From a virus (lineage: Duplodnaviria; Caudoviricetes), in IMG/VR virus record IMGVR_UViG_3300033407_000004, positions 12,134 through 76,133 of that record: 64,000 nt of DNA. One strand, 5' to 3'. Below the pieces are notes generated by a model. It was not told the DNA's origin, ran no database searches, and saw only the letters and a list, made by a program, of their open reading frames with translations. A program made the translations under genes and the position numbers. Of this stretch, positions 5,764-57,943 are shown one piece after another (position 1 is the first letter of the stretch; each line of letters starts with the position of its first letter).

Positions 5764-8700
5764 TCATTCTTCCTCCTCGGTGGTTAATTCGATATCATCA
5801 TTTGCGTTTGCAGACTTCACGGATTCATTTAAAAATGCCATCCTCTCGGTAATCATTTCATCAATATCCCGGATTTCAGACTTGTCGGCGTTGTCGTCAA
5901 GAAGCTCTTTGCGCAATTTCCTGAACCTCTTCACATCGCGTTCAATGTCGTTGGCCAGTCTGTAAAGCCCCGCTTCCGGGTGGGCTTCAAGGTAATCGTC
6001 AATGTCCTTACCATCTTTCAACCTGCCCTCGATCTCGTTCTGATGCTTGTTCAGAAGGATGATGTTTTCGTAAAATCTGCTTCCCTCTGCGGATTGGCTT
6101 GCAGCATTACCGTAAAGTCTTCCGAAAAGCGGGATCTTGTGGGGCGGTAGGTCCTCTCCAGAGGCAAGCACGGTTGTGCTCGTGGCGACCTTATTTAACT
6201 CCCGTCCGACTCCGCCTGTGGCTTGTCCGATGAGGTAGTCTATTTGATCCGGGGTCGGGCTTACGACCCCCGGCTGGTACTCAGTCCCGCCGGACAGCCA
6301 ATTTATGGCTCGTGAAAGCTGCTTGCTGATTTCGCTTGCGGTATCCTTGGTTCTAGTATGTCCCGGCGTCGGGTTCAAGCTGTTATAATCCGGTCTCGAA
6401 ATAGGTCTCCCCGTCCAGTCCCGGTTTTCCGCCAGTGCCGCAAACGGATCCAGCACGGTCGGAGCGATAGTCTGCATGGACAGACCCGACCCACCGATCG
6501 GATTAAATGCATCCACTACCGTGCCGGCAAATGACGTAACCTTTTTCCCTACATCCTTGCGACCAGGCAAGAGAAGTTCCGTGGCTAACCGGCCCAGATT
6601 CGGCAGCACGAGAAAGCCTTGCGGCATGGGGATTGAGATGTACTTCTTACCGCCTATGGGAATAACGAAGCTCCTCTCACGAATAAAGCCCGGCGGCTCG
6701 TCATCATCGAATCCAAATGCGGCCAGCATCAAGGCATCCATGGCGCCGAGCAGTATTCCGCCAGCGATTATCTTTTTGCCTGCCGGTCCCTTCAGGGTTT
6801 CCACCATCCTCGCCGTACCTTGGGCGGAGGCGTTAAAGAAGGCATACAGCGACCCTGCCTGCCTCGCTATTTGACCCTTCCTGTTAAAGTTGACGGTCAG
6901 GTTCTTGGCAATGCTTGCGGCCTGCATTTTGCTCATTCCGGCGTCTATGGCGGTTTTGTAAGTGGCAAGCCTGACTGCGTTCTCGGAAACCGTATTGTAG
7001 TCGGAAAGCCAGTTCATAACGGCCCTGCCTGCCATCCTCATCTTGCCTGCCATTGCTCGCTTGATTTCTCTCTGAAGGGCTTCCCCGCGCTCCTGAGAGT
7101 TTTTGAACATATCGCGATACCCGGTCTGTCCGCCTTCAGCTTGGAATTCTTCCCAAAGCTGCGCCCATTGAGACGTGGGAGCCTTTCCTGACCTCTTCTT
7201 TCTGATATCCGAGTAAATACCCCGCAATGCGGAGACAGTGTGTTTCAGCACGATAGGCTGCTTGCCTGCCAGCGGAGTTGCGCTGAGATTCAGCATTCCG
7301 CTTTGAACGTCGCGCATGAGGTTGATAACGCCAAAGACCGGGTTGTACTGCGTGTTGATTGAGGCAAAATACCTTGTCGCTTTAGCGGAAAGCCCGAGCA
7401 AGTGGCTGATCTCGTCGGCATCCAGATTCTTGAGGGCTGCGGCCATCCGGACGGCTCTCTCATTAGTTTCGTTGAACATGACCGAATGTTCTTCGATTAT
7501 TCCGGTTTTCTTATTCGGGATCCTTGCGATGATCACGTTTTCTTTTGACTTATAGAGCGGGTCAACCATGGAAACAACTCGCTCTTCAACGTAAGGCTTT
7601 GCTGCCTTTCTCGCCACCGATCCGGGGATAGTTTCGGCAAAATCCTGAGCGTCTTCTTTGGTCAGGAAATTCCCCTCCACTTTCGCTTTGGATACGACTT
7701 CCCACGGGTAAACGGTGGCTTCGAGAGTCTTGATCTTTGGCGGCTGGTCAACCTTCCAGAAGTCTTTGTTCGGGTTCGCAAAAGCCAACCCGACAAGAGC
7801 GGTAGATACCCGGTTCTTTTCTCCCCGGATAATCGCCTTCTCTCGTTGAGACGCTATGTTTGCCAGAATATCCACCACGGCCCGCTTCGAGCCAGTACGC
7901 CTCTTGGAGACTGGCCCGCGAACAGAGAAGCCCTGCCCGATTCCAGGACCTCGCTCCATGTCTTCCCGGTGAAGGGGTACGTAGTATTTATACGCTGACT
8001 CCATGGCGTCAACGTCGCTCTGAGCCGTAAGCCCGTATTCGACCCATGTCTGGCGAGTTTCTTTGTTGATCGCGTCAACCTTTTTCGCAAGGGCCTCGAA
8101 TGCTGCCATATTTTCAGGGGTCAGCGATGAGAGATACGCTTGCGCATCCGCTGTATCCATGCCCGATCCACCATCCTGCATGTCCGGGTTGTCAGGGTTC
8201 CGCTTGGCAATCGTCTCGTTCGCTTCCTGAGCATGGCGGGCGTGAAGATATTCCTCAAAGTCCGCGATGGCTATTTTGCGCTTTGCCATCTCCTGCATAA
8301 GAGGCCGGATCTCTTGTTCAAGGAAATCCGATGTTTTCTTCGCGGTCCGGCCATGGAACAGCTCTTCCTGCATGTAGACATTGAACTTGTCTGCGATTTC
8401 CCCTACCTGCTTCTTTATGGCCGCAATCACCCGTTTTGTGTCGATATGCTTATCCTGCATGGTGCGGATAAAAGAGTCCATCTTGGAAGGCTCTTCGGTC
8501 CACGAGACGCTATTCCTAGGGTTTTCGGCATTCACGCTTGCCGCTTCCTCTTTCGCCTTAACTTCCTCCACCTTCGGCCGCACCCCCTCCGCCTTCTTCA
8601 TCATCTTCGCCCTGGACGCTTCCCACCGTCTCCGTGCCTCCTCGCGGGAGATAGGCCCCTCACCGAGGGCGCCGGACTGACCCAGCCGCTTATTCGCATC

Positions 8701-34728: not shown

Positions 34729-35301
34729 TTGTGTCCAGGAACGACGTGGATAATCGTATCCCGTGCCAGGCTCAGGGATCTGGCCGTCATTCCGCATAAG
34801 ATCGAAAATGCACTCATCAACCAGAGGGCACTTGATGGCTATGTCGATGCTACTGCCATGTGTAAAGCCTCCGGGAAAGAATTCGGACATTACTACGAAA
34901 ACAAGACAACAAAGGCTTTTCTTGCCGAGCTTTCTACCGTCATCGGAATTCCGATAACGCAACCTGTCTATAGAATTCAAGGCGGTAGGGCCGAACTTCA
35001 AGGCACTTGGGTTCATCCTGATGTTGCAATCAACCTTGGGCAATGGTGTTCTCCTAAATTTGCGGTTGCGGTTTCCCAATGGGTTCGTGAATGGATAACT
35101 GGAAAGTCAAAAATCGCTATTTTTCTAAATGACGTACAGCGCAAAAAAGCAAAAAAAGAGAATGAGTATGGCGTATCAGCAACATTTTTGCCTGGCCACT
35201 TTAAGGCTTACACAGTTAAACTAAATCCGCTTGATGGAGTTTATTACTGTGACATCCGGCCCAACATGCTTACCGACTCTTTGCTTTCCCACCACAAATG
35301 A
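34729..35301 (+). CDS. KilA-N domain protein (start uncertain)
   Basis: DGYVDATAMCKASGK, GTWVHPDVAINLGQWCSPKFAVAV. Confidence 0.8.
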   Translation: MCPGTTWIIVSRARLRDLAVIPHKIENALINQRALDGYVDATAMCKASGKEFGHYYENKTTKAFLAELSTVIGIPITQPVYRIQGGRAELQGTWVHPDVAINLGQWCSPKFAVAVSQWVREWITGKSKIAIFLNDVQRKKAKKENEYGVSATFLPGHFKAYTVKLNPLDGVYYCDIRPNMLTDSLLSHHK

Positions 35302-35303
35302 GA

Positions 35304-35361
35304 TTCTAACAAGCAGGTCCAGACGGACGCGAACACCGCGCCGCTGACCTGCGCGTTAAAC
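35304..35361 (+). repeat. attC-like site
   Basis: TTCTAAC-5-GGTC[C]AG[A]CGG...CCG-CTGACC-5-GTTAAAC. Confidence 0.85.
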
Positions 35362-35362
35362 A

Positions 35363-35767
35363 CTACCAGCGTTCCGAATCATCGAATCTGACAATGAGTT
35401 CGGAGGCTAATTTATAAAGCCATTCCATCATTGCCACATGCTGCTTCCAACTGTGTTTCCCGCAAAGATGAAGGTATCCGCCTTGCTGCTTTTTATCTCC
35501 CTCGCCTTCCTCTTCGCCAAACCATACATGACAACAGCCGTCCCACTTCATATATGCCGTGCAGTAAAGTTCCGTATCACAGGGCACATTTTCTTCGCCC
35601 CATGTAATTACTTCTTCAACCGTAACATTGATGTGCGTCTCGGATTTTTCTGTGATGGTAGCAATAAATCCGATGTATCCGTCAGGTCCGACGAAGTGTT
35701 TAACCAGGGGATCGACTCTCTCTGGCTTATTCTCGCTCGGCGCTGGTTTTGTTTGTTCTGTGCTCAT
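35363..35767 (-). CDS. Cassette gene, hypothetical
   Basis: Start codon and RBS lie inside the extended attC at 35698-35801. Confidence 0.65.
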   Translation of the reverse strand: MSTEQTKPAPSENKPERVDPLVKHFVGPDGYIGFIATITEKSETHINVTVEEVITWGEENVPCDTELYCTAYMKWDGCCHVWFGEEEGEGDKKQQGGYLHLCGKHSWKQHVAMMEWLYKLASELIVRFDDSERW

Positions 35768-35801
35768 CGGTTTCTCCTCGGGGGGCATCCCCGCGTTAGC
35801 T
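35698..35801 (+). repeat. Extended attC-like site containing RBS and start codon
   Basis: Minus: GCTAAC GCGGGGATG...GTC[G]ATCCCCTG GTTAAAC; homologous to 57006-57109. Confidence 0.75.
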
Positions 35802-35963
35802 CTTAACGTCCTTCTTCTTTCGGCGCGTTTCGGCTGATTTCTGAGCCATATCCCGCGCCTGCTCCGGTGTCAAAATACGGCGGGATTTGCTCCCGCCTTT
35901 GCTCGCCAATTCTTTTGCCGCTTTTTTGAGGCTGATTATGCCTCCGCAATGTGGGCACCTCAT
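35796..35963 (-). CDS. 55-aa basic Zn-knuckle protein, putative DNA-binding regulator
   Basis: Not in track: MRCPHCGG...SKGGSKSRRILTPEQARDMAQKSAETRRKK; TAATG coupling; stop in the TAAC box. Confidence 0.7.
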   Translation of the reverse strand: MRCPHCGGIISLKKAAKELASKGGSKSRRILTPEQARDMAQKSAETRRKKKDVKS

Positions 35964-36301
35964 TACTCGTCCTCGGCATCACGGGCAGTTTCGCGCTCAA
36001 AAATCAGGTCGCGTACCCGCTGCATAGACGATTCCGCGTCACCGTCCCAAAGCTCTGAGGACTCCTCTGCTGTAATAAGATCGTCCTCGATTGCATCCCG
36101 CTCCTCGCCAAGATACTCATAATAATCTGACCACCACTCGATAACTTGATCGGCGTCCTCGTGTCCCTCTACGTCTACCCGGCTCATCTCCCTGGAGCAA
36201 TCGCCGTACATTGACGTTTCGCTGCCCGGTGCAAACTCCTGCTCCCACTCCATTACTTTTTCCGCGAAATCTTGCATCTTTTTTGTCTTATACTCGCTCA
36301 T
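35963..36301 (-). CDS. Highly acidic 112-aa protein
   Basis: About 36 D/E versus 11 K/R; RBS GAGGAGG. Confidence 0.7.
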   Translation of the reverse strand: MSEYKTKKMQDFAEKVMEWEQEFAPGSETSMYGDCSREMSRVDVEGHEDADQVIEWWSDYYEYLGEERDAIEDDLITAEESSELWDGDAESSMQRVRDLIFERETARDAEDE

Positions 36302-36354
36302 TGCCGCCTCCTCAAGATGCGGGCCTTTTGTGGTCCCGTCTTACTCTTGAGACA

Positions 36355-36383
36355 ATATTAGCATAAGCGGTTATGCTTGTCAA
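36355..36383 (-). promoter_or_regulatory. Consensus promoter with palindromic operator
   Basis: TTGACA-17-TAATAT; the spacer carries AGCATAA-CCGC-TTATGCT. Confidence 0.75.
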
Positions 36384-36417
36384 GGGGTATTTGTAAAATA
36401 AATCTAAGTCAACACCG

Positions 36418-36475
36418 AGCTAACAAAACGATCCAGACGGGCGCTAAAATCGCGCCGCTGATCTGGACGTTAGCT
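36418..36475 (+). repeat. attC-like site
   Basis: AGCTAAC-5-GATC[C]AG[A]CGG...CCG-CTGATC-5-GTTAGCT. Confidence 0.85.
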
Positions 36476-37306
36476 CCTATAATCGTTCCATCTTACTGTT
36501 CTGAATACCTGCTTCGCGTTCACCCACCGGGCGAACCGGCGCTGATACTCGTTCCCCTTGTCCAGTGCCATAATGTACGGGTCGTATCCCATCGCGTCAA
36601 TTACCATGACCCTGTGCATATCCTCTTCCGGGGTCGTGTGTCCGATCATCACGTACACCATGACCTTTGACACTTTCGCGGTTTTCAGGTGGCAGAGGCC
36701 GCGCAATACTTCCGCTTCATGCTCGGGGTAATCCCATGCGAAGTGAAGATACCCTTCGCGCTTCAACTTCTTCACGGCCTGCGCCTGCTCCTCGCCTACG
36801 AGCCGAGCATCAAAGCCGTGTTCGATCACCGTCAACTTTGCGTCGGCGATCTCCGCGAACGTATCGCGCCAGTTCGGATCGGCAAACGTGTTATTGTTCA
36901 TCAGCATGATCTTACTGAACCTTGGTTCGTGGAAATCCCAAATCGAATAATGCGTTTCATCGTTCCGTTGCTTCGGGACAATGCAAAAATCACACGTTCG
37001 AGGGCAAGCCTTGTACGTGTAGCCCATCGAATAATCAATCTTCGGATACAACGTATAGTCCGGCCTCATCCGGTCCATCTCAGACGGCAATTTGCCCTCG
37101 GGATACTTCGGGCCTCCTACGAGATCCGCGACAGGATCAGGCGTACCCTGGAAGAGAACAGAGGCATACGTCAGGTCGGCGCTCGTCCCGGAGAACCACG
37201 GAAAATTCAGCGTCGTCTTGTCGCCCAACTTCCGATGATAGGCGCTGATTTTCATGGCCGCGAGGTTCGGCATTTTGCTATCGGGAGTATAGATATTTAC
37301 GAGCAT
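36470..37306 (-). CDS. Radical SAM-like Fe-S protein (cassette gene)
   Basis: PNLAAMKISAYHR, CPRTCDFC (CxxxCxxC); stop in the TAAC box. Confidence 0.8.
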   Translation of the reverse strand: MLVNIYTPDSKMPNLAAMKISAYHRKLGDKTTLNFPWFSGTSADLTYASVLFQGTPDPVADLVGGPKYPEGKLPSEMDRMRPDYTLYPKIDYSMGYTYKACPRTCDFCIVPKQRNDETHYSIWDFHEPRFSKIMLMNNNTFADPNWRDTFAEIADAKLTVIEHGFDARLVGEEQAQAVKKLKREGYLHFAWDYPEHEAEVLRGLCHLKTAKVSKVMVYVMIGHTTPEEDMHRVMVIDAMGYDPYIMALDKGNEYQRRFARWVNAKQVFRTVRWNDYRS

Positions 37307-37320
37307 AGTTTGTAAACCTG

Positions 37321-37377
37321 GGCTAACCAACGTATCGACGGGTCGCAAGACCCGCGCCCGTCATCCGGGCGTTATCG
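37321..37377 (+). repeat. attC-like site; 50 nt identical (inverted) to 57541-57590
   Basis: GGCTAAC...GTTATCG hairpin. Confidence 0.85.
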
Positions 37378-37746
37378 TGTCACATAGTTTAGGATTTCCA
37401 TTTTTAATTTTTTTATCTTTTTATTTGTTAATATATGCTCATTGTGTTCGTCGTTGCAGTCGGCCCATTCGAAAAAACAATATCGAGTTATCTTATTCTT
37501 ATTTTTTATACACTCTTGCAATATCGGAATGCACTGTGGATAAATCTTATATCGTTTTTTTACCATTTCATATGAAATTGGTACATCTCGCTCGGCAATT
37601 TCGTTATTATCCCAACAAACATCATTTATATGATCAAGCTCGCTGCATTTTTCTTGCGCAGCCGCAGTCGAAATCAAAAAAGCGACGATAACAAAAGCGT
37701 CGAGCAAGCGCCTATATTCTTTTTTCTGTTTCATTCGGTCCTCCAT
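37372..37746 (-). CDS. Cassette gene, Cys-rich probable secreted protein
   Basis: FVIVAFLISTAAA signal-like stretch; start inside attC 37686-37775. Confidence 0.55.
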   Translation of the reverse strand: MEDRMKQKKEYRRLLDAFVIVAFLISTAAAQEKCSELDHINDVCWDNNEIAERDVPISYEMVKKRYKIYPQCIPILQECIKNKNKITRYCFFEWADCNDEHNEHILTNKKIKKLKMEILNYVTR

Positions 37747-37775
37747 TTCCGGCGTTGCTCACGCCTCCGTTATCT
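37686..37775 (+). repeat. Extended attC-like site
   Basis: CGATAAC-5-CGT[C]GAGCAA[G]CGCC...GGCGTTGCTCACG-5-GTTATCT. Confidence 0.75.
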
Positions 37776-40154: not shown

Positions 40155-40610
40155 TTATCTTTTATTCTTAAAGGCGTCCTTGTCTTTGTCCTTGTCCTTG
40201 TCTTTGTCCTTGTCCTTGTCTTTGTCTTTAAGAGTATCGTTGACCACAACTAGACGACTAATTGAGGACTCGTTGACCTCATTAAACCTAAGTCTTTGAA
40301 TAATTGACAAATGCACCCTATTTGCAGGGTTTAAATGTTTGCCGTATTGGAATGCCAGGAAATCCAAAACGAACCATCTCCCGTTCTTCAGCACCTCTAT
40401 TCGCGGTTTATCTGCGTTGAATTTCGATAGGGCATTATTGAGGTCAACTTGCACTCTAATTGTGGCCTCAAATATTCTTTTATTGGGCTTCCAAATTCCG
40501 GCATGGTCGCAGTCGTCAAGGATGAAAAACCAGAGAAACTTTTCCCCTGACGATAGATCGATAAACCAATCTTCTGTCCAGATTTCTGTTGCATGGAATC
40601 TCTTTGGCAT
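40155..40610 (-). CDS. Phage replication initiator, N-terminal wHTH domain only
   Basis: KRFHATEIWTEDWF...DDCDHAGIW; ends just after (KD)9. Confidence 0.7.
   Translation of the reverse strand: MPKRFHATEIWTEDWFIDLSSGEKFLWFFILDDCDHAGIWKPNKRIFEATIRVQVDLNNALSKFNADKPRIEVLKNGRWFVLDFLAFQYGKHLNPANRVHLSIIQRLRFNEVNESSISRLVVVNDTLKDKDKDKDKDKDKDKDKDAFKNKR
40176..40229. repeat. Nine tandem GTCYTT hexamers encoding (KD)9
   Basis: GTCCTT/GTCTTT x9 next to an AT-rich tract at 40141-40171. Confidence 0.9.
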
Positions 40611-53830: not shown

Positions 53831-54276
53831 CGACCGAACACTTCCACGCCCGCACCGCCGCCGAGATCGACCAGTGCGCCAATTTTCTGAAGCTGGCGAT
53901 CCCTGCCCAAGGGTGGAGAATAACGTACACTCCGTGGAGGGAAAAGCGGTCGCTCAGTCAGAATTCGTTTATGCACGTAATATACCGGGACATCAGCAAC
54001 TACCTAATCAGCAAAGGCCGTTCAGAGTGGACGCCTGGAAAAGTCAAATTGATGCTTAAGAACAAGTACCTTGGCTGGACGGAAGTTGAGTTCACCGATG
54101 TTGTGACCGGGCAAGTAACCACCAGAGAAGTGCTGAAATCATCGTCAGCATTGGATGTAGGGGCGGCAAACCACTTCATAACTGAGATCATAGAATGGGC
54201 GGCCAGCATCGGCATTGAGATCAAAGTACCCGCTGAGTGCGAGTACCGGGATGTGTTGAATACGCAGAATAGGTAA
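53827..54276 (+). CDS. NinB/YbcN-like protein
   Basis: KRSLSQNSFMH, KLMLKNKYLG, FITEIIEWAA; stop in the first attC box. Confidence 0.8.
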   Translation: MTTEHFHARTAAEIDQCANFLKLAIPAQGWRITYTPWREKRSLSQNSFMHVIYRDISNYLISKGRSEWTPGKVKLMLKNKYLGWTEVEFTDVVTGQVTTREVLKSSSALDVGAANHFITEIIEWAASIGIEIKVPAECEYRDVLNTQNR

Positions 54277-54347
54277 CGTGCGCATGACGCGCCGCAAGGC
54301 GTGTCGCTGTCGATGCGCTGGTTAAAATCCAGCGCAAGAAAGGACAC

Positions 54348-56406
54348 ATGAGAAACGATTCTCTTTATAAATTTATGGCAGAAGAAATTCAACAAGCCAA
54401 AACGGAGAAACAAGCCGAAGTCATCGCCGGGAACATTGTCAAAGAGGCACTTTGGCAGGGAGAGCTTACAGCATACCGAAAGCTCTTGTCACATGTTCAT
54501 GCCGAAAGCGGAACGAATGACTTTCTTCCCTTGTTCGGAAAATTTTAACAATGAGTTGTTCGGTGCGGTAGCATCCGAACGAACGACTCGTTAGGCCATT
54601 TCACAGGGAGGGAATAAGCAATGTATAAACCGTACAAGCCAGAAGAAAAGATTGTTGACCGTGCTGTCGAGCTTTGGAAACGAATGCTGAAAAATCCGAA
54701 ATTCGACAATGGAGATTCAAGCGTTAACGGGTTTTTCGCTTCTTCGATGGCTAAGATGATCCCGAACAATGCCACGGATGAAGTTCTTCAGGCATTCGGG
54801 GACAACCTGAAAGCCGCGCTGATGAACCCAGACCCGGAATATAAACAAGAATTTTTCCACTCTTCGTTGGGCGTCGATTACGGACCCGACAAGGTTCTTC
54901 ACGAAGCCGCTGAAAAGGCCGGTCTAAAAATGGAGTTCCCCTGGAAAACTACCATGTCCCTTTGGACTGAGTACGTTTCGGTTTCGGCGGGGTACGGAGC
55001 CGATCGCGTTTATCATTACCCGTTGGCCGATGGGCGGTGGCTGATGACGACGCTTTGCGGTTCTGATATTTCAAAGATCATAGCATATTGTGAAGGCAAA
55101 GAACTGGCGTTCGAGATCGAGGGTCAAAAGGTCTAACACCAATTTGACGCGCAAGCGTCAGCGCAGCCGCAGTCGAAATTTTGGTTATGCGTGCTTTCAA
55201 TCTTAACTTCATAGGAGCAGACAAATGAAAACAATAGTTGTCAGATGGGTAAAAGAAGAAACATTCGGTTACGATAAAGCCATGCGAGTTGAATTTTCTT
55301 GCCATGAACGGTTTGTAGTTGGCAGTCGCTTTGACTTTGGATTTTTCAGCATAGCCACAGACGAGGGATACACAATTGTTTCATTACCGATGGAAAAGGA
55401 TTTAGACGCATAACGCGGAGGTAACGATGCGGAGCGAAGCGGAGCAATCAGTTGACCGACTGGTTGTGTGCGATGTATGCAAACAGGAAATACAGGAAAG
55501 CGCCATGACCGATGTTGATGATCTTGAGCCGAACGGCGATCATAAGACGTTGCTCGTTTGTCCGATGTGCATTGATGCCATGCAGCCGGTACATGAAAGC
55601 ATGATGCAAGTAACGCGAGAAATGGCATGTGACGCAGGGGACCGGAGCATGGAAGGTTCGTGGATTAAGTGGTAGTACACAACACGAACATGACCCGCTT
55701 TTGACGGGTCGATGTTCTGGTTGGACGCGGGTTTTGTCCAGCCAGAACGGAAAGGAATTAATTATGGATAAGCGGCAGCAATACGGATACATCAAAAATC
55801 AAATATGCCTTTTCTGCGGAAACATCGAGGACATAGAACCGGACGTGGAGCGCCCGTCATGCGGCGTTTGTGAAGTTGTGGGCAGCGAGGTTGAAACATA
55901 CGGGCATTGCTCGGAGTGGACGGAAATTAGATAGCGTCCAACGTCCGGGTCAGTCGCGCGTCTTGCGCGACGATCTGGACACGGTGGTTAGTCTCGGGGT
56001 TAATTCTATGAACGACAAAAAAAGAGCCGCACTCGATACGCTGATTGATAAAGTAAAACACGCCTATGAGCTTTTGGAGAACATGGACCACGACACGCTT
56101 GCCATGTTGATATTAGATTCTCCTTCCATTCGAGAATACTACGCTACTAAGAAGAAAGCAATGTCGGTTTGTATTTACTGCGGTATGGCAATAGAGCACC
56201 CGGAAGACCCAGAAAAAATCGCAGAGATTCATCATGCCCTTGTAAAGCATGATGCGCGTTGTCCTCAGAATCCGTTTGTTTTTGCGTTGAAACAGGTTAG
56301 ACAAATTGCCAAAGACGGACGGGACTGGAACCCCGGACATTTCTGTGAATCTCGGAGCAAGATGCAGTCAATCGTTGACCGGTGCGACAATGTTTTAAGA
56401 GACTAA
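54348..56406 (+). CDS. Six cassette genes (54348-54548, 54621-55136, 55225-55413, 55427-55675, 55764-55934, 56008-56406)
   Basis: One ORF per attC interval; several stops fall in TAAC boxes; products unrecognised. Confidence 0.7.
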
Positions 56407-56490
56407 CGCCTGAGTTGTGGGGCGGGCCGCTTGCGGCACGTCCCGCACGAACGACGGGTTATACGGCTGGCGGTTACTACGGAGAACAGG

Positions 56491-57306
56491 ATGCACAACT
56501 TGCAAAAAAATATGAGCAACGCCACTTTGCCGCCAGTGCTTGACGCCTGCTGCGGTAGCCGGATGTTTTGGTTTGACCGCAAGGACGACCGGGCGACGTT
56601 CGTGGACAAGCGCCGGGAGCGGCACACGCTGCCCGACATTTCCAGCAAGGGCGGAAGCCGCGAACTGGTAATTGACCCTGACCACTTGGCAGACTTCACC
56701 GACCTGCCTTTCCCGTCCGACACGTTTGCGCTGGTGGTTTTCGATCCACCGCACTTCGAGCGCAACGGCGCGACCGGATGGGTGGGGTTGAAGTACGGCA
56801 CGCTGAAAGGCGATTGGCAGTCGATGCTGCGCGAGGGATTTGCCGAATGCTTCCGCGTGCTGCGGCCTGAAGGGGTTTTGATTTTCAAGTGGTGCGAGGA
56901 CGAGATACCCGTTTCGCGGATTCTTGCACTGACACCGGAGCGCCCGCTTTTTGGCCACCGCAGCGGCAAGCAGCAGAAGACGCATTGGGTGACGTTTATG
57001 AAGCCGTATAACGCGGGGATGACCCGCACAGGAGAACCAATGAGCGACGAAAAAACCATGAACGAAACAAATGAGAATAAACCAGCCGGAGTCGATCCCC
57101 TGGTTATGACAATCGCGGATATAAGAGAATCTCTTGGAGTAGGACACAAGCCGATGCTTTCCGAACTGCCGGGCATTTGCAATGAATTTCGATTACTACT
57201 TTCAGAGGCTCGGTCATTTTGCCTTCGCATGGATTGCGACGGAGATCCACTGAATGACGATCTGGCGAGACGCATACAAATAGCTTTACGGATAACGCGA
57301 GGATGA
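56491..57306 (+). CDS. Class I SAM methyltransferase (DPPH) read through an attC into a second gene starting at 57040
   Basis: VLDACCGSRMFW, VVFDPPH, LRPEGVLIFKW, HWVTFMK, then YNAGMT (attC) and MSDEK. Confidence 0.8.
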   Translation: MHNLQKNMSNATLPPVLDACCGSRMFWFDRKDDRATFVDKRRERHTLPDISSKGGSRELVIDPDHLADFTDLPFPSDTFALVVFDPPHFERNGATGWVGLKYGTLKGDWQSMLREGFAECFRVLRPEGVLIFKWCEDEIPVSRILALTPERPLFGHRSGKQQKTHWVTFMKPYNAGMTRTGEPMSDEKTMNETNENKPAGVDPLVMTIADIRESLGVGHKPMLSELPGICNEFRLLLSEARSFCLRMDCDGDPLNDDLARRIQIALRITRG

Positions 57307-57366
57307 GACGCGGCTTTCCGCGTCGTTCTCGATCCTCTGGTTAAAATCCAGAGGGAAAGGAAAGGC

Positions 57367-57923
57367 ATGAACGAGCAGGAGAAAAAAGAAGTCGAAGAGA
57401 GCATAACTTTATCAGAAGAAATTGTCCGTGCAGCTTGTATTAAGGTGCTCACAGATAAGCATTTTGAACTTGCGAAACGAAGCTATCCGCCGCCAAAAAT
57501 CCTTTTGGATTTGGCACAGGAGATGAGGGAACTTAAATTTTAACGCCCGGATGACGGGCGCGGGTCTTGCGACCCGTCGATACGTTGGTTGGACTCAGAG
57601 GTGATCGAATGGCATGGACATATTTGAAATTCAATAAAGCCGGGAACATCTTGAAACGCTCCCCGAAATTGCCGGGCGAGAGACACGCATACCTCGGGTT
57701 TGATCTTCTTCGGATGATGACCGTGATCGGGTATACCGAGCGGGGCGGGTTCAGTTCGTTCCTCGGACCGAACGTAAACGACGATTGCAATATTGTCGCC
57801 TGGGCTCCGCTGTCTGAAAAAGAGAGCGCCGACATTGATGTGATCCAGAAAAATTGTCCCTTTTATCCATGGGACGATGGAGATACATGCGACGCATCGG
57901 AAATACCGCTGTTGATTCGATGA
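57367..57923 (+). CDS. Two cassette genes (57367-57543, 57609-57923)
   Basis: RBS present; bounded by attC boxes. Confidence 0.6.
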
Positions 57924-57943
57924 GTCCAACCAGGCATTAGATC
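57924..57943 (-). promoter_or_regulatory. attI-like recombination site
   Basis: Minus: GATCTAAT-GCCTG-GTTGGAC; no attC hairpin; terminates the array. Confidence 0.5.

Follow-up and report, generated by a model that had tools for sequence, protein, structure and literature searches.

The early, leftward-transcribed arm of a tailed soil phage (Caudoviricetes) carries five hairpin sites that resemble attC, the recombination sites of integrons, and these sites, together with the genes lying between them, are examined here as a candidate array of gene cassettes. The phage is represented by a 76,133-base virus record of IMG/VR (IMGVR_UViG_3300033407_000004; completeness estimate 89%), of which bases 12134-76133, a stretch of 64,000 nucleotides (nt), form the window that was analyzed; positions are those of the window unless another contig is named. 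The record encodes a portal protein, a large terminase and a very large virion-associated protein, and near-identical fragments of the phage are held by soil metagenomes from several studies. Its genes point leftward as far as about 47 kb and rightward from there on, and the minimum of the cumulative GC skew falls at the same point. In the leftward arm the five sites, S1 to S5, lie within 2.5 kb and delimit four cassettes, in a region whose G+C content is similar to that of its flanks. On one side a kilA-N gene (34729..35301, plus strand; Pfam KilA-N, E-value 2.2e-22), the sole gene of the region on the attC top strand, stops 2 nt ahead of S1; it could be either a classically oriented cassette or a backbone gene of the phage. 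On the other side the backbone resumes past the G|TT of S5 (37769|37770). A preliminary description of the same DNA had placed attC-like sites at 35304, 35698, 36418, 37321 and 37686, and all of them were found at these positions. A sister array of ten sites of the same family lies in the rightward arm and is counted together with the left one where stated.

Structure and Recognition of the attC Sites

In each site a box ending in AAC comes first, a box starting with GTT comes last, and a hairpin with a two-part stem lies between them. Across both arrays the AAC and GTT triplets are invariant (15/15 sites), and an unpaired C is found on the top strand 8 nt past AAC, again in 15/15 sites and in the same place as in the attC of aadA1. 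The fold is that of an attC, an imperfect palindrome made up of an R box, a spacer, an L box and a variable loop, in which the polarity is set by extrahelical bases confined to one arm. The stem covaries: when the 12 short sites of both arrays are aligned, 84.7% of the cells are paired, versus 30-43% when the partner columns are slid, and two-sided changes occur at 13 of the 19 stem pairs.

Two covariance models were used. Model R1 was built from the 12 short phage sites of the window (both arrays), and model R2 from 35 real attC, belonging to class 1 plasmid cassettes, to phage TJE1 and to bacterial arrays beside intI, the integron integrase gene. The preliminary description had proposed a covariance search as the check, with failure of the sites against attC models as the outcome that would speak against it. 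No such failure occurred: in the 64 kb, model R2 finds exactly 15 sites, S1 to S5 on the plus strand and the ten of the right arm on the minus strand, while the next match has an E-value of 2.3 and no other falls below 1. Conversely, model R1 recovers in the window the three long sites held out of it and nothing else, and it recognizes attC sites elsewhere. On the class 1 arrays of three plasmids it finds the attC of aadA1 (E 3.8e-8), of the gcu cassette, aac(6')-IIa, arr-3 and blaVIM-2, always on the cassette coding strand and with the unpaired C aligned to the known extrahelical position. In phage TJE1 it finds three sites at the 3' ends, and on the coding strand, of three co-oriented open reading frames (ORFs). 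In 80 bacterial loci centered on integron integrases, 24 of its 26 matches show the classical arrangement, upstream of intI and on the strand opposite to it. Rfam at gathering thresholds gave no match in the window, and no further sites were found in the first 12 kb of the record. The sites share the geometry and polarity of bacterial attC, and their recombination by an integron integrase (IntI) is predicted.

The strongest site is S1 (58 nt; 35304..35361), with 53.9 bits from model R2 (E 3.5e-9), a fold of -17.6 kcal/mol and a clear strand preference under model R1 (65.2 bits on the plus strand, 20.4 on the minus strand). S3 (58 nt; 36418..36475; 41.3 bits, E 1.4e-6 with model R2) is 74% identical to S1, and S4 (57 nt; 37321..37377; 32.5 bits, E 9e-5) contains a 49-nt core that recurs elsewhere, as described below. 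The two remaining sites are longer. S2 in its long form (104 nt; 35698..35801; 19.7 bits, E 0.04 with model R2; E 0.63 with model R1) carries in its loop the translation start of cassette 1, and along its full extent it shares about 70% identity with site R8 of the right arm (57006-57109), which model R2 finds at E 1.3e-4. S2 and R8 each encode a ribosome-binding site (RBS), an ATG and a similar leader (..ENKP..VDPLV), fused to unrelated protein bodies. S5 (90 nt; 37686..37775), the last site, scores 20.9 bits with model R2 (E 0.023) and 24.4 bits with model R1, from which it was held out (E 9e-4); in its fold GCGT[C]GAGCAA[G]CGCC is paired with GGCGTTGCTCACGC. The top strand of all five is the plus strand. 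A scan demanding perfect pairing within the site recovered S3 alone, as expected when the outer bases of a box find their partners at the far end of the cassette rather than in the same hairpin.

This pairing across the cassette is the signature of the array boundaries. The GTT box that follows each hairpin matches the AAC box before the next hairpin, and not the AAC box of its own hairpin. In particular, GTTAAACACT at S1 is complementary to AGTGTTTAAC at S2 over 10 nt, GTTAGCTC at S2 to GAGCTAAC at S3 over 8 nt, and GTTATCGT at S4 to ACGATAAC at S5 over 8 nt; between S3 and S4 the perfect complement spans 6 nt (7/8 overall). The lengths previously given for these complements (9, 8, 7/8 and 8 nt) were thus real and, overall, slightly short. 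In both arrays the complement extends past the AAC/GTT core by a mean of 5.0-5.1 nt; the corresponding figure is 0.85 nt over 106 pairs of non-cognate boxes and about 1 nt for the two boxes of one site. Each cassette start (TTRRRY) of the left array would, once circularized, pair with the R'' box of the same cassette. This is the pattern expected if site-specific recombination next to the core triplet had closed each interval into a circle.

The Four Cassettes and Their Cargo

The coding strand of each interval was assessed by homology and by codon-usage scores trained on 14 long ORFs of the phage. Cassette 1 (440 nt; 35356..35795, minus strand) holds an ORF of 134 amino acids (aa) with an isoelectric point (pI) of 4.9 (35363-35767), whose RBS (GAGGAG), ATG and first 23 codons are within the S2 loop. 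Its codon score is +26.9, against -11.9 for the best ORF of the plus strand. A protein encoded on a viral contig of 197 kb, without attC in its vicinity, matches residues 25-125, so that the homology begins just past the part encoded by the S2 loop.

Cassette 2 (674 nt; 35796..36469, minus strand) is the promoter-bearing two-gene unit anticipated by the preliminary description. Its two ORFs encode an acidic protein of 112 aa (35963-36301, minus strand; pI 4.05; codon score +47.4) and a basic CxxC protein of 55 aa (35796-35963, minus strand; pI 10.6; codon score +10.0), neither of which matches a family in Pfam, PHROGs or NCBIfam; a search for viral relatives of the acidic protein found none. 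The promoter-like site runs from 36383 to 36355 on the minus strand and is a consensus match only: TTGACA and TAATAT spaced by 17 nt, with an upstream TG (TTGACA AGCATAACCGCTTATGC TAATAT). Both this site (36355-36383) and a second cassette-borne one, on the related viral contig L045 (15277-15318), have an inverted repeat between or around the hexamers; by their sequence they look like operator-controlled promoters.

Cassette 3 (902 nt; 36470..37371, minus strand) carries the radical S-adenosylmethionine (SAM) gene that had been expected here, an ORF of 292 aa (36470-37348) with its likely start at ATG 37306. The product matches phrog_9298, a radical SAM domain protein (E 3.1e-52), contains the motif CPRTCDFC and has no match in Pfam; its codon score is +70.1. 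None of its 18 viral homologues (33-51% identity) has an attC nearby, and since 0/18 of these loci adjoin sites, radical SAM is not usually a cassette gene. The radical SAM gene and the body of the 134-aa protein have relatives in other phages without nearby sites; these cargo genes are therefore phage genes turned into cassettes rather than imports from bacterial integrons.

Cassette 4 (398 nt; 37372..37769, minus strand) contains an ORF of 120 aa with six Cys (37372-37734), whose RBS (GGAGGA) and ATG lie within the S5 loop; the codon score is +14.2, while a 104-aa ORF on the plus strand scores -39.4. The N-terminus, MKQKKEYRRLLDAFVIVAFLISTAAA, was judged signal-peptide-like, so that the secreted protein previously announced stands as a prediction. 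Within this ORF, beside S5, an exact 19-nt repeat (GCGCAGCCGCAGTCGAAAT) is found at 37656-37674 and again at 55161-55179, in the 3' arm of site R3 of the right array; it may be a site remnant. Altogether, four of the five cargo proteins had no match in Pfam, PHROGs and NCBIfam.

Classical Sites, Reversed Genes

It is important to distinguish between the polarity of the sites and the direction of the genes. The boundary complement is silent on the former, as both orientations predict the same pairs, and the polarity was set instead from the unpaired C, the models of real attC, the ends of the arrays and the location of intI where related contigs carry it. By the models, the attC top strand is the plus strand in the left arm and the minus strand in the right arm, and the cassette genes are on the opposite strand in both. 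Codon scores favor the minus strand in 4/4 left-arm intervals and the plus strand in every scorable right-arm interval, and homology backs the coding strand for the radical SAM protein, the 134-aa protein and, in the right arm, the methyltransferase (phrog_954, E 2e-68) and phrog_8937.

In a classical cassette the attC follows a promoterless ORF encoded on its top strand, an arrangement that none of the four left cassettes and none of the scorable right-arm intervals has. Along the mRNA the order is attC, RBS, ORF and stop, and in 3/4 left-arm cassettes the stop is a TAA whose complement starts right after G|TT. Were the boundary on the other side, the RBS and start codons in the S2 and S5 loops would be severed from their own genes. 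A crude count of ORFs ending at sites gives 24/31 in the classical direction for bacterial, plasmid and TJE1 sites, and 24/35 in the reversed one for the phage site family. The sites therefore seem to have kept the classical polarity, with the genes flipped within the cassettes. A search of one collection of the literature found no paper describing reversed cassettes in phage arrays.

A Sister Array in the Rightward Arm

The sister array (54271..57930, top strand minus) consists of ten sites and ten cassettes, with all of its ORFs on the plus strand. It ends at 57930 with a junction without a hairpin, TGAGTCCAA|C, the only one of its kind in the array, which lies at the end where the attC polarity predicts the insertion site. 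Its cargo includes a DNA methyltransferase (phrog_954) and phrog_8937. The methyltransferase ORF (56431-57306) has no stop at the AAC box of R8 and continues in frame through this site into the ORF of the next cassette, which has its own RBS and ATG at 57040; the region encodes either a 291-aa fusion or two proteins. Considering both arms, the cargo (DNA methyltransferases, a radical SAM enzyme, small acidic proteins) may plausibly consist of counter-defence genes.

The 49-nt core of S4 is identical (49/49) to that of R10 (57538-57594), in inverted orientation, so that the genome contains a 49-nt inverted repeat whose copies are 20 kb apart. The same core occurs in seven copies (one of them 1 nt off) on five viral contigs including the window; the other copies are at 7350-7406 and 8029-8085 of contig L049, 6850-6906 of L042, 778-834 of L036 and 12139-12195 of L045. 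The preliminary description had taken the existence of two independent arrays as an argument against a single chance capture. Both arrays exist; their independence does not hold, because they share site types (S4 and the R10 core, S2 and R8), and to judge from these they draw on one site pool.

Integrases and Related Arrays in Other Phages

In the whole 76-kb record neither an integron integrase (TIGR02249) nor any other tyrosine recombinase gave a signal at E<=10, while in 14/14 control genomes the same search gave a signal through ordinary tyrosine recombinases. With no intI in the record, the locus is not a complete integron (intI with an adjacent attI, the insertion site, and a cassette array); it corresponds to what IntegronFinder defines as a cluster of attC sites lacking an integron integrase (CALIN), that is, at least two attC close together with no such gene nearby.

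Integrases are found beside the same family of sites in other phages. A pattern derived from the sites retrieved nine viral contigs, five of which carry arrays of this family with three to seven or more sites and chained box complements. Two of these five encode, beside the array, an integron integrase above the curated TIGR02249 cut-off (436 and 270.7 bits) and thus hold complete integrons, at 2554-8912 of contig L042 and at 12139-16459 of contig L045. One of the two integrons lies between a DnaB-like helicase and integrase/structural genes, the other between Mu-like transposition genes and the terminase of a Mu-like transposable phage. In both contigs the array is upstream of intI and its top strand diverges from intI, as in bacteria, and the identifiable cargo, N6_N4 DNA methylases, is carried antisense to the attC top strand. 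Reversal is not universal among the related contigs, since in one of them the first cassette next to intI appears classical, with a promoter-driven gene on the top strand. The bacterial integrases closest to the IntI of these phages are 52-60% identical to it and spread over many phyla; as they are both distant and scattered, no host can be named.

One cassette is shared between otherwise unrelated contigs: the methyltransferase cassette of the right arm has a 63%-identical counterpart at 2701-3279 of contig L029 and is bounded by sites in both. In L029 the methyltransferase ORF stops at the TAA of the box. The helicase most similar to that of the phage (75% identity) is encoded on a contig where an array of this site family, with different cargo, adjoins it. 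On the contig whose terminase is the most similar one (65% identity), no array is present and gene content upstream of the terminase is not shared. In the window, a run of GTCCTT/GTCTTT hexamer repeats (40176-40229) is present just upstream of the helicase start (40111). Among 34 loci of terminase relatives one weak site match was seen; four loci of helicase relatives had no sites within 10 kb, in a set from which the 75%-identical contig was absent, as it was found later by the site pattern. A Megablast comparison of 30-42 kb with 50,697 phage records returned nothing. The preliminary description had held that gene content invariant across relatives would count against a cassette array. With no close relative available, this made for a weak test: the cargo beside the 75%-identical helicase is different, and the terminase relative has neither array nor synteny upstream of its terminase.

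Weighing the Interpretations

Considering the structure of the sites, the boundary complements and the arrays of the same family beside IntI, we assign a probability of about 0.8 to the interpretation that an integron-type cassette array devoid of an integrase (a CALIN) occupies this stretch of the early leftward arm of a soil phage. Several observations weigh against it, and they concern the sites, the array end and the lack of visible movement. S2 is the weakest site, and both S2 and S5 score below the three short sites (E 0.04 and 0.023). The strict 7-nt consensus RYYYAAC/GTTRRRY is found in 5/15 (R'') and 3/15 (R') sites only, and just 2x2 unpaired nt separate the R box from the L box, a shorter spacer than that of aadA1. 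The training sites of model R2 were picked and aligned with model R1, which favors resemblance to the phage sites. A GTT box complementary to the AAC box of S1 was searched for upstream of S1 and none was found; because S1 lacks this partner, the end of the left array next to kilA-N is not a clean insertion site, and no attI-type junction is visible there. The contigs of four soil runs contain no alternative joints that would be recombination products, and contigs of two other soil studies have the same junctions at >=99% identity. Finally, the 49-nt cores have unrelated flanks on both sides, and the outer 4 nt of both boxes differ, so that one-sided crossover alone does not explain them; copying of the cores, or short-homology exchange within them, may also occur.

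The points about movement would suit a fossil array, a block acquired once from an integron-bearing phage or bacterium, whose sites are true attC by descent that no longer recombine and whose genes are fixed. Besides the unchanged junctions and the unclean left end, the absence of an integrase from the genome is in its favor. Nevertheless, the hairpins, the unpaired C and the boundary complements of 6-10 nt are intact in 5/5 sites, the identity of the 49-nt core across five contigs argues for recent exchange, and contigs show presence only and cannot reveal rare variants. We consider a fossil unlikely, though it is the alternative to be taken most seriously. In the probable source run, the Logan contigs break at S1, S3 and S4, since these sites are repeated, and one contig corresponds to cassette 3 (36468-37354). 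Its word depth is 8.9, versus 12-13.3 in the flanking contigs, with one figure per contig; it hints weakly that part of the population lacks the radical SAM cassette, but does not amount to evidence of heterogeneity.

The unrelated flanks of the seven 49-nt cores are instead what would be expected if the hairpins were short blocks of homology, through which a single-strand annealing recombinase of the phage or the RecA of the host swaps modules with no need of an integron integrase, as for lambdoid linkers or for the PeSL of T4-type phages. PeSL, reportedly described by Arbiol et al. in 2010, are mobile regulatory cassettes in which every stem-loop comes with an early promoter and which reportedly act through homologous recombination. 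They resemble the present array in that conserved stem-loops lie between small early genes of variable content, in a part of the phage genome that is plastic; they differ from it because the window has a promoter-like site in one cassette only and sites with the crossover signature of integrons. Exchange through homology blocks predicts neither the complementarity of the opening and closing boxes, nor the asymmetric unpaired C, nor true integron integrases beside arrays of the same family, and most sites of the array share far less than 49 nt with each other. Therefore, as a full account it is improbable, more so than a fossil.

Much less credit is due to the idea that the sites are regulatory hairpins of the phage (terminators, RNA processing sites or translational signals), attC-like by convergence. 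As RNA they would be present in every intergenic 5' region, each lies directly upstream of an RBS, and two of them hold the RBS and the start codon. Yet no T run follows any of them, a terminator scan gives a single hairpin, inside S2, the models of real attC match them strand-specifically and match nothing else in 64 kb, and the boundary complements have no regulatory rationale. An assembly chimera of bacterial integron pieces misjoined into a phage contig, to which the breaks of the source-run contigs at the repeated S1, S3 and S4 might point, can practically be dismissed, as a contig from another study bridges kilA-N, S1 and cassette 1 (35031-35531) unchanged, each array has the gene direction of its own arm, the cargo is of phage type (phrog_9298, phrog_954, phrog_8937) and the G+C content is like that of the flanks.

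Comparison With Known Integrons

CALINs in phages, and a few complete integrons in temperate phages, have already been reported by Qi, Rajabal, Ghaly, Tetu and Gillings (2023; PMC9892861), who screened 10,705 phage genomes of NCBI, and not metagenomic viral contigs, with at least two sites per CALIN. The attC sites of phage TJE1 were recombined by IntI1 in the laboratory, and both TJE1 and PH101 have the classical orientation (PMC9892861). The present arrays resemble these CALINs in the clustering of attC and cassettes without intI in a phage genome and in the DNA methyltransferase cargo; in scale, this phage has 5 + 10 sites in two arms. The likeness to TJE1 extends to the models, as TJE1 sites are found by model R1 and, in the training of model R2, help to find the sites of the window. 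What differs here from the published phage CALINs is the reversed layout: in TJE1 the ORFs are on the attC top strand and end at the site, whereas the cassette ORFs of the window are bottom-strand ORFs whose starts lie at the site or within it.

The arrays share with classical integrons the AAC/GTT cores, the imperfect palindrome, the unpaired C as in aadA1 and the complement between R'' and R' across the cassette, with site lengths of 57-104 nt in the window; furthermore, the related contigs that bear intI keep the classical polarity relative to it. In contrast, the genome analyzed here has no intI, no recognizable attI and no recognizable Pc, the promoter of classical integrons, its genes are antisense and the unpaired central spacer is very short. 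Reversed integrons are known in Treponema (Coleman et al., 2004), in which intI is transcribed towards attI and the array is downstream (PMC3607928, PMC4909258). As in Treponema, the integrase and the cassette genes have the same direction in the two intI-bearing phage contigs. Unlike in Treponema, the phage arrays are upstream of intI with classical attC polarity, and it is the genes that are flipped within the cassettes, not the integrase.

A Possible Mechanism and Its Significance

The crossover would most likely take place at G|TT on the plus strand, which corresponds to AA|C on the folded bottom strand, and in S1 it would fall at 35355|35356. Each cassette would then circularize with a perfectly paired R box. 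Since the phage has no tyrosine recombinase of its own, any present-day movement would need an integron integrase in trans, which could be supplied by the host or by a co-resident phage. Because the genes read against the attC top strand, no promoter located at the attI end could drive them, and transcription would come from the phage arm or, for cassette 2, from the promoter borne by the cassette. Should replication move outward from the divergence point of the two arms (about 47 kb), the bottom strands of both arrays would be on the lagging-strand template, by inference only; this position is reported to favor attC folding and excision (PMC13108822).

A broader proposal, to which we give somewhat less than even odds, is that phages keep their own branch of the integron system. 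In this branch a separate pool of cassettes would have the attC at the head of the gene, so that the site serves as a portable translation start with RBS, ATG and sometimes a leader peptide; expression would rely on phage promoters and not on Pc, phages bearing an integrase would service in trans those without one, and the recombinogenic bottom strand would coincide with the coding strand.

Integrons are known as gene-capture devices of bacteria, and the phage CALINs reported in 2023 came from few isolates and had the classical gene orientation. The 15 sites described here, in two arrays with reversed genes, together with the same layout in other phage contigs, some with their own integrase, suggest that phages shuffle early accessory genes through integron recombination, with design rules unlike those of bacteria. 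This layout bears on the origin of cassettes and on the coding and translational roles of attC.

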